64,000 nucleotides of DNA from Candidatus Aenigmatarchaeota archaeon (lineage in GTDB: Archaea > Aenigmatarchaeota > Aenigmatarchaeia > CG10238-14 > SCSR01): contig JAGVVV010000008.1 in assembly GCA_018304615.1 (NCBI GenBank), positions 25,741-89,740 on the forward strand. Direction: 5' to 3'. Of this stretch, positions 43,331 to 45,134 are shown piece by piece. Under the pieces are notes generated by a model. It worked only from the letters and a program-made list of their open reading frames with translations, made no database searches and was not told the DNA's origin. The number at the start of each line of letters is the position of its first letter. Positions within the stretch are counted from its first letter, which is position 1. A program made the translations under genes and the position numbers.

Positions 43331-44185
43331 TTAAACATACGGCAAAAGCAGTAAAATCCCGACTGCAAGGAAGATGGGAATTGGTAATCCGGGTAGTGGT
43401 TTGTTGTACTTCTCAAGGATGTAAAGTGTGAGTAGGACTCCGAGATTAATTGCAATTCCAACTATGGCTGCTCCGAGGAAACTTTTTTGGATGAATCCTG
43501 AAGCGACAAGGAGAGAGTAAAAGACGAAATCACCTGTTCCAATGGTGAATCCTCCTATTCTTGTAATAATTAAACCGAGATCAGAATAGATGAATTTCTC
43601 TTGCAAAGTTTTCTTGGGTTGTATTTTAATCAGTTTTTTCAGAGGACCGCGGAAGACGGCATAGATGTCATAAAGAGCAAAAGCTAGAGGAAGGATGTAT
43701 AAAGTAGGTGGTGATAAACTCAGAGCCAAATAAGATGCTATCTCTGTTGTCAGCAAAAGAACTGACGAAGTTACTATCAGATAATTTTTGTTGTAAAGGC
43801 CGTAGACTATCGCGAGAATGAACAAGAGTGTTATTGAAGTTGAAAGCGTGAAAAGGTCTGTTCCTGAATATCGGTTAAGAAGAACCATCAATTGCCAATC
43901 TGTAAATCCGAACAGGAAAATTAACGGTAAAATAATGACGATGAATTTGAAAACTACTCTCAGTCTGTATTTCAAGATGAAAATCAGGAATATGGTGAAT
44001 AATGCTACATAGATGACTAAAATTCCTGAGTTGGCTGAAGCCTGTGCCACATTTTCATTTCCAAATGGAGCATACTGCTCTACTGGAATTTGTGAAATGA
44101 TGAAATTTTGTGTGAATAGGACAGCGACAATCTGAGTCAGGACAAAAGTTGTTATCAGAAGTAGTTGGTTTCTTTTTTCTTTCAT
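43331..44185 (-). CDS. Presenilin/SPP-family intramembrane aspartyl protease
   Basis: LYDIYAVF, IGTGDF, PLPGLP; multiple TM helices. Confidence 0.88.
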   Translation of the reverse strand: MKEKRNQLLLITTFVLTQIVAVLFTQNFIISQIPVEQYAPFGNENVAQASANSGILVIYVALFTIFLIFILKYRLRVVFKFIVIILPLIFLFGFTDWQLMVLLNRYSGTDLFTLSTSITLLFILAIVYGLYNKNYLIVTSSVLLLTTEIASYLALSLSPPTLYILPLAFALYDIYAVFRGPLKKLIKIQPKKTLQEKFIYSDLGLIITRIGGFTIGTGDFVFYSLLVASGFIQKSFLGAAIVGIAINLGVLLTLYILEKYNKPLPGLPIPIFLAVGILLLLPYV

Positions 44186-44727: not shown

Positions 44728-44931
44728 TTAGGACTTTGCAAACCAGTGCGGTTGACCGGCGAGAAGCTTTGATTTAACTTTTTTCTGTTTTTCCAGCTCT
44801 GCAAGTTTCTGCTTAGCTTTGCTTTCCTCCAAATCAAAAACGCGGGAAATTTCCTTGATGACATCTTTTATTTTCAGCCCAAGTTTTTCGAATAATTTTC
44901 TCCATTCCCCATCATTTTTGTTAGATAGCAT
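44728..44931 (-). CDS. Small hypothetical protein or gene remnant (wHTH-like)
   Basis: ORF begins at the tRNA-Arg discriminator base; helical Lys/Glu-rich. Confidence 0.4.
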   Translation of the reverse strand: MLSNKNDGEWRKLFEKLGLKIKDVIKEISRVFDLEESKAKQKLAELEKQKKVKSKLLAGQPHWFAKS

Positions 44932-45019
44932 GCCCCTGCAGGGATTTGAACCCTGGACCTCCTGCTTAGAAGGCAGTTGCTCTATCCAAACTGAGCTTTC
45001 CTCGTATTACTACAAGGGC
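44931..45019 (-). tRNA. tRNA-Arg(TCT) with 14-nt BHB intron at 8/9 (44998-45011)
   Basis: Spliced: GCCCTTG TA GCTC AGTTTGGATA GAGC A ACTGC CTTCTAA GCAGG AGGTC CAGGG TTCAAAT CCCTG CAGGGGC A. Confidence 0.85.
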
Positions 45020-45134
45020 ATTAGCCATCAGGGGCATTATTCTAAATTATCATAACAACTTCATTAATAAAACATTAGGTGTAGACCAAACAAAATCTGA
45101 CCTTTTTATCTACTTTATCAAACACATTCTTTTT

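Follow-up and report, generated by a model that had tools for sequence, protein, structure and literature searches.

A tRNA-Arg(UCU) gene of an Aenigmatarchaeota archaeon with a predicted intron at position 8/9 and an upstream copy of its 5′ acceptor strand as putative placeholder

Results

The tRNA-Arg(UCU) locus

The window analysed here (a stretch of 64,000 nt, to which all coordinates without a contig prefix refer) contains a tRNA-Arg(UCU) gene on the minus strand, running 45019→44931, whose two exons are colinear and separated by 14 nt. Exon 1 (45012..45019) reaches from G1 (45019) to U8 (45012); exon 2 (44931..44997) extends from A9 (44997) to A73 (44931) and includes a D-arm with A20, the anticodon UCU (44970-44968), a T-arm and the 3′ acceptor strand (44938-44932), and CCA is not encoded. 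The 14 nt in between (44998..45011) represent a putative intron at 8/9. In the BHB register described below, the 5′ strand of the central helix consists of exon bases 3-6, which pair with 45003-45000 as the 3′ strand, G1C2 belongs to the outer helix, G7-U8 start the 5′ bulge, 45010-45009 pair with 45005-45004 as inner helix, and 44999-44998 plus A9 make up the 3′ bulge. Upstream of G1 and on the same strand, a 9-nt spacer (45020..45028) is preceded by a copy of the 5′ acceptor strand (45029..45035), a predicted placeholder that begins 16 nt before G1; a candidate TATA-like element (45064..45072) is located 52 nt upstream of G1, ~36 nt ahead of the copy. Directly downstream of the gene, 43331-44185 (minus strand) encodes a 284-aa membrane protein with YD, GxGD and PGLP words, which we take to be reminiscent of presenilin-type intramembrane proteases.

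ARAGORN misses the tRNA gene and the Rfam match covers model positions 9-63 only, both of which are expected because the insert follows base 8. Running ARAGORN with introns and a lowered threshold yielded 666 calls, mostly spurious among the matches listed, and these were left unused.

Intron register and identity of the gene

Three registers (8/9, 9/10 and 10/11) lead to an identical spliced product. Taking as the BHB central helix 4 bp between exon bases n-5..n-2 and the intron, we found it only at n=8: this register alone provides a 4/4 central helix (CCUU/GAGG, one G-U) flanked by outer (G1C2/G10C11) and inner helices of 2 bp each, whereas 9/10 offers 2/4 central pairs and 10/11 offers 3/4 with the flanking helices absent. 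An earlier note on this DNA had claimed that the 14-nt insert after U8 can form a BHB and that 8/9 is the sole register to do so; its description is exact. Removal of the insert leaves a 75-nt cloverleaf with U8-A9 and all arms paired, in which 27-43 is mismatched. The hBHBh′ geometry (two 3-nt bulges, 2-bp flanking helices) is possible and predicted to lie 7-13 kcal/mol above the ground state, the strict motif being 13 kcal/mol above it with the leader included. The latter is unfavoured because G7-U8-A can pair into the intron, which closes the 5′ bulge in the folding model, and because the outer helix competes with the D-stem. The intron start (45011-45006) repeats G7-U8-A, giving a slipped hairpin with a GUAA tetraloop and the 5′ bulge closed, and similar intron starts occur in the loci L086, L087 and L089; such a hairpin could slow or gate splicing.

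An intronless orthologue (L002) shares the first eight bases and the G-U at 5-68, and there U8 is joined straight to A9. Among the best 30 loci from 61 related genomes, 28 are tRNAs of relatives without a 5′ insert, mostly Arg, and the D-arm is identical to that of tRNA-Arg(CCU) of the same genome. Along with the covariation of the central helix, the splicing and maturation enzyme genes and the lack of a second Arg(UCU) gene among 41 T-arm sites, all described below, the intronless orthologues support the earlier view of a BHB intron at 8/9. At the sequence level, the insert resembles a non-canonical archaeal BHB intron, and we predict that it is spliced.

AGA is the most used Arg codon of the genome (3568 of 6340 Arg codons, i.e. 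56%, in ORFs ≥250 codons). A check for further AGA decoders found no second Arg(UCU) gene in this 89.5%-complete genome, as a UCU loop is present at one of 41 T-arm sites, that of the gene described here; a second gene could be unassembled. If AGA were read by such an unassembled gene, the locus might be a pseudogene or integration scar, which we regard as extremely improbable: the arms of the tRNA are all paired, A20 is in place, both insert and leader show conservation, 8/9 inserts are also found in Arg genes of other genera, and the 27-43 mismatch, which could be taken as a sign of decay, is found at the same place in L002. The incompleteness of the genome and its duplicate genes for Pro and Asn anticodons speak for a pseudogene. 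In total, five genes of the genome carry Pro anticodons (GGG and UGG twice each, CGG once) and three carry GUU; one of the latter (C8:52427-52500) starts with an initiator-like A1 and has its first pair mismatched.

Processing enzymes

The genome encodes RtcB, RNase P RNA plus Rpp29, and one EndA gene of 190 aa (contig C10). The one PF01974 match and the one PF02778 match over the cut-off fall in the same ORF, and the protein most resembles the α4 enzyme of M. jannaschii; from the single gene in an assembly of 89.5% completeness we infer an α4 subunit type. Its loop before the catalytic His is 6 residues longer than in M. jannaschii and aligns without gaps with the N. equitans α insert. Judged by this alignment, the insert probably corresponds to the L3 loop, which PMC5829648 links in DPANN α4 EndA to disrupted tRNA genes. 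The likeness to these enzymes extends to one short gene, a C-terminal insert and a genome rich in non-canonical introns; cutting at 8/9 by the present EndA is predicted. The EndA gene, a multi-intron tRNA-Phe and a tRNA-Asn with an 8/9 intron lie within ~1.7 kb (C10:75566-77190, L031).

The leader copy and its predicted effect on folding

It had been stated earlier that splicing at 8/9 requires the acceptor stem to be open. We judge this requirement to be right, but the acceptor-strand copy upstream had been overlooked. The copy (45035-45029) forms 7/7 Watson-Crick pairs with bases 66-72, where the real strand has one G-U, and with the flanking bases 45037-45036 the helix reaches 9 bp. In the predicted fold with the leader, the copy pairs with the 3′ strand and exon 1 pairs with the intron. 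The probability of the central helix is 0.89 with the leader, 0.00 without it and 0.28 with a shuffled leader, and removing the leader lets the true acceptor stem form in the model (P=1.00). The cost of a central helix with open bulges falls from 10.0 kcal/mol without to 6.7 kcal/mol with the leader, which is at the high end of the set described below. The tRNA-Asn of the same genome (C10:77111) has the same design of 8/9 intron and leader copy. These folding predictions suggest that the copy likely holds the 3′ strand and thereby opens the acceptor stem for splicing.

When splicing is modelled as completed, the copy is predicted to remain paired (P=1.00 here, favoured by 2.9-4.5 kcal/mol; median P 0.94 across 30 genes). 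Such folding models omit tertiary contacts and charge little for a longer multiloop linker. Given that the copy is predicted to stay paired, swapping back to the true strand needs tertiary or enzyme help outside the scoring of the model. The persistent and perfect pairing is also what would be expected if the copy itself were the mature 5′ acceptor strand and an outer intron, made up of spacer and inner copy, were excised following the 8/9 intron. This is very improbable, however, since such an outer intron would have at most 2/4 central pairs in all 7 registers of tRNA-Arg(UCU) and thus no BHB; across 32 genes, 4/4 pairs occur in only 10 of 224 registers, 6 of them resulting from self-complementary acceptor strands, and the intronless L002 carries the inner sequence with its G-U.

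Alternatively, the copy might chiefly control the order of events, as a decoy that diverts RNase P from G1 until the intron is gone. The true acceptor stem formed in the absence of the leader would indeed be an RNase P substrate, and end trimming precedes splicing in M. kandleri, as described in PMC3695527. Nevertheless, exon bases 3-6 must be freed for the central helix anyway, and a decoy is compatible with the placeholder, both following from the same pairing; we therefore think it quite unlikely that order control is the chief role.

Conservation and transcription signals

Compared with the window, two metagenome contigs carry 14 and 18 differences over 81 positions (45054-45134), but have no listed differences in intron, exon 1, spacer and copy (44998-45035); they share changes, so that they count as about one test, and one of them is changed at 45036. 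The segment 45057-45071, which overlaps the TATA-like element, likewise has no listed differences in the two contigs. The sequencing run X20 covered the generic tRNA core only. With respect to G1, TATA-like words peak at -35 to -31 in control tRNA genes (30%), whereas in genes with a leader copy they peak at -50 to -41, and at -35 to -26 when counted from the copy; the shift is weak (peaks of 19-30%). This weakly suggests that the transcript of tRNA-Arg(UCU) starts just before the copy.

Inserts near base 8 and leader copies in other archaeal tRNA genes

To find similar genes we used a search pattern for tRNAs lacking a U immediately before A9, many of whose matches are due to chance; in the phylum it had matches in 62 of 371 genomes, in the family in 28 of 69. 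A scan of the wider collection gave at least 119 stretches, mostly bacterial, from which no frequency can be derived. Parsing of the matches resulted in 47 distinct genes with inserts at 8/9 or 9/10 (42 from Aenigmatarchaeota and 5 from Thaumarchaeota, Bathyarchaeia, Thermoprotei or Thermofilales records), which were picked by tRNA pattern and acceptor complement, blind to the BHB motif. Two genes of an initial 49 were left out, one with the motif in no register (L079) and one with its leader cut by the contig end (L072), as were identical duplicates, non-tRNA pattern matches and matches with an unplaceable acceptor; the folding set also lacks L045 and L050, in which a 4/4 helix is lacking. 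The isotypes represented are Arg, Asn, Phe, Lys, CAU, Thr and His-type.

A 4/4 central helix is present in 42 of the 47 insert genes (29 at 8/9, 13 at 9/10), the strict hBHBh′ form in 20. The helix covaries beyond chance, with 15 different sequence pairs among the 42 genes: 15 of 20 distinct pairs are 4/4, as compared to a mean of 2.2 and a maximum of 8 in 10,000 swaps. The earlier impression that 8/9 is an uncommon intron position holds in part. It is missing from the positions given in section 4 of PMC4090602, but recurs in many tRNAs of Aenigmatarchaeota and in some of Thermoproteota. Some inserts depart from the standard geometry: in the 8/9 introns of tRNA-Lys (L038, L039, L052-L054) the outer helix is absent, as G2 faces G10 (HBh′-type), and L045 and L050 have longer 3′ bulges. 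By their sequences, these introns imply an EndA of relaxed specificity.

A leader copy located 7-20 nt before G1 was found in 32 of the 47 insert genes, but in none of 64 controls (32 tRNAs of relatives without a 5′ insert and 32 other tRNAs of the genome, many of the latter with introns elsewhere; the controls come mostly from one order). The corresponding Fisher p of 1e-16 is overstated, as related genes are non-independent samples. Copies occur across 18 of 21 lineages and involve 16 different acceptor sequences. The base following the copy is mixed (A in 11, G in 8, C in 7 and U in 6 cases), and thus the copy is usually without a trailing U8. In 7 genes, including tRNA-Arg(UCU), the copy makes a Watson-Crick pair in place of a G-U of the real strand, which indicates that it tracks the 3′ strand rather than exon 1. 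We excluded the overall Watson-Crick fraction of the copies as support because it is circular, pairing being a selection criterion.

For 30 copy genes the median probability of the central helix is predicted to be 0.99 with the leader, 0.00 without and 0.39 with a shuffled leader, and a helix with open bulges is cheaper with the leader in 42 of 42 genes (median 2.8 versus 8.3 kcal/mol). A calibration of the bulge cost on canonical introns gave values for 3 of 12 genes (0-5.3 kcal/mol) and was uninformative. For the five Thermoproteota genes of the 47-gene set, the model fails to form the central helix even when the leader is included (P ≤0.14). As a held-out group we searched Thermoproteota, where 20 of 401 genomes matched the pattern. 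Of the 19 new matches, 8 are tRNAs interrupted after base 8 or 9, 3 are tRNAs whose insert lies in the D-arm, 7 are non-tRNA sequences and 1 is unresolved. All 8 tRNAs of the first group have a copy (7 detected by script, one of these being a 6-nt copy abutting G1, and L222 by eye); 5 of 7 held-out genes have just 3/4 central pairs; no leader copy was found in the 3 tRNAs with D-arm inserts.

The remaining 15 of the 47 genes are copy-less, and in 10 of them the leader pairs with the D-arm beyond what is seen in shuffles (shuffle p<0.05). A D-arm-pairing leader would, on these folding results, represent a second way to favour the BHB motif. This claim rests on the shuffle test, as a helix count over bases 9-22 separated the groups poorly and a duplex-energy test was confounded by leader GC. 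Leaders of this second type, without an acceptor copy, are found in L041, L057, L061, L064, L065, L068, L075, L076, L077 and L081, where 6-19 bp are complementary to the D-loop/D-stem or lengthen the outer BHB helix; the Arg genes of genera g20 and g36 have either this type or, in L069, a copy.

Could the copies be mere scars of the duplication or insertion that brought the introns, with EndA opening the acceptor stem unaided during splicing? The first bases of a tRNA-Phe gene (L051) occur in three tandem 10-nt copies that include U8-A9, which looks like plain duplication and suggests, from the sequence of this gene, that copies arise via tandem duplication. Moreover, 17 of the 32 copies are identical to exon 1, and the 15 insert genes without a copy would also fit a scar. 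Copies mostly end at base 7, however, and in 7 genes the copy is a better match than exon 1 to the 3′ strand; in the two diverged contigs (about one test) copy and spacer are free of listed changes, and most copy-less genes (10 of 15) possess the D-arm-pairing leader as an alternative helper. A scar is therefore unlikely, though it deserves more weight than the other alternatives.

Discussion

Taken together, we favour, at a probability of roughly 0.7, a reading in which this sole detected tRNA-Arg(UCU) gene carries a BHB-type intron at 8/9 that is likely cut by EndA, with the leader copy as a predicted placeholder for the 5′ acceptor strand. Transcription would start a few bases before the copy, which, by the folding prediction, would then pair with bases 66-72 and free bases 1-8 for the intron. 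EndA would open the bulges and cut, and RtcB would join U8 to A9, as the gene content suggests. Branch migration, with the aid of tertiary contacts such as U8-A14, would subsequently let the true strand displace the copy; this is the weakest step. A cut by RNase P at G1 would finalise the swap, and CCA would be added. Since the RNase P cut would finalise the swap after splicing, splicing would have to precede the last 5′ cut.

The predicted intron shares with the non-canonical archaeal BHB introns of Thermoproteales, ARMAN-2 and Asgard a short length, predicted removal by proteins (EndA plus RtcB), a 4-bp exon-intron central helix, two potential 3-nt bulges and a position that disrupts the cloverleaf. 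In contrast to the introns described in section 4 of PMC4090602, where non-canonical positions range from 20/21 to 59/60 in a list ending 'etc.' and 3/4 is given as an extreme case, inserts at 8/9 and 9/10 fall outside the listed positions. The Asgard preprint (bioRxiv 10.64898/2026.10.13.758758) groups acceptor and junction inserts as 'other'. A leader standing in for an acceptor strand is not mentioned in the available portions of this preprint or of PMC4090602, PMC3239211, PMC8450103 and PMC11291895, and our literature search found no paper on 8/9 introns or on the leader copy, although catalogues or supplements may list 8/9.

The design is also reminiscent of the split and permuted tRNAs of N. 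equitans, Caldivirga, Thermofilum pendens and C. merolae, in which pairing of a non-exon leader or trailer sets up the BHB and the order of processing is constrained (portions of PMC3218864, PMC3978253 and PMC4033280). There, however, the leader contributes to the BHB itself and EndA removes it (same sources), whereas in tRNA-Arg(UCU), a single gene, it pairs with the 3′ acceptor strand away from the BHB and its removal is predicted to be by RNase P. A split, trans-spliced tRNA was rejected because the exons are colinear and 14 nt apart, a permuted tRNA because the order is 5′ then 3′ and the upstream element repeats the 5′ strand, and a multi-intron tRNA with a second acceptor-stem intron of the 3/4 type because at most 2/4 pairs were found in 7 registers.

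The reading proposed here offers a concrete answer to the question of how an intron can be removed whose splice signal uses bases of the acceptor stem, and it gives tRNA leaders, usually regarded as disposable, a sequence-specific role. The order known from M. kandleri, with trimming ahead of splicing (PMC3695527), is predicted to be reversed. The proposal further accounts for tRNA calls that are missing in DPANN genomes, because ARAGORN missed tRNA-Arg(UCU) and Rfam matched positions 9-63 only, and a scanner could mistake the copy for the true 5′ end. More generally, we lean slightly towards the view that such leaders are built-in strand-swap chaperones for introns near base 8-10, acting as placeholder for an acceptor or D-arm strand. 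If this is true, they would have arisen repeatedly, with six isotypes at least and two phyla involved; splicing would be forced to come ahead of the final cut by RNase P; and a new intron near base 8-10 would need a matching leader for its fixation.
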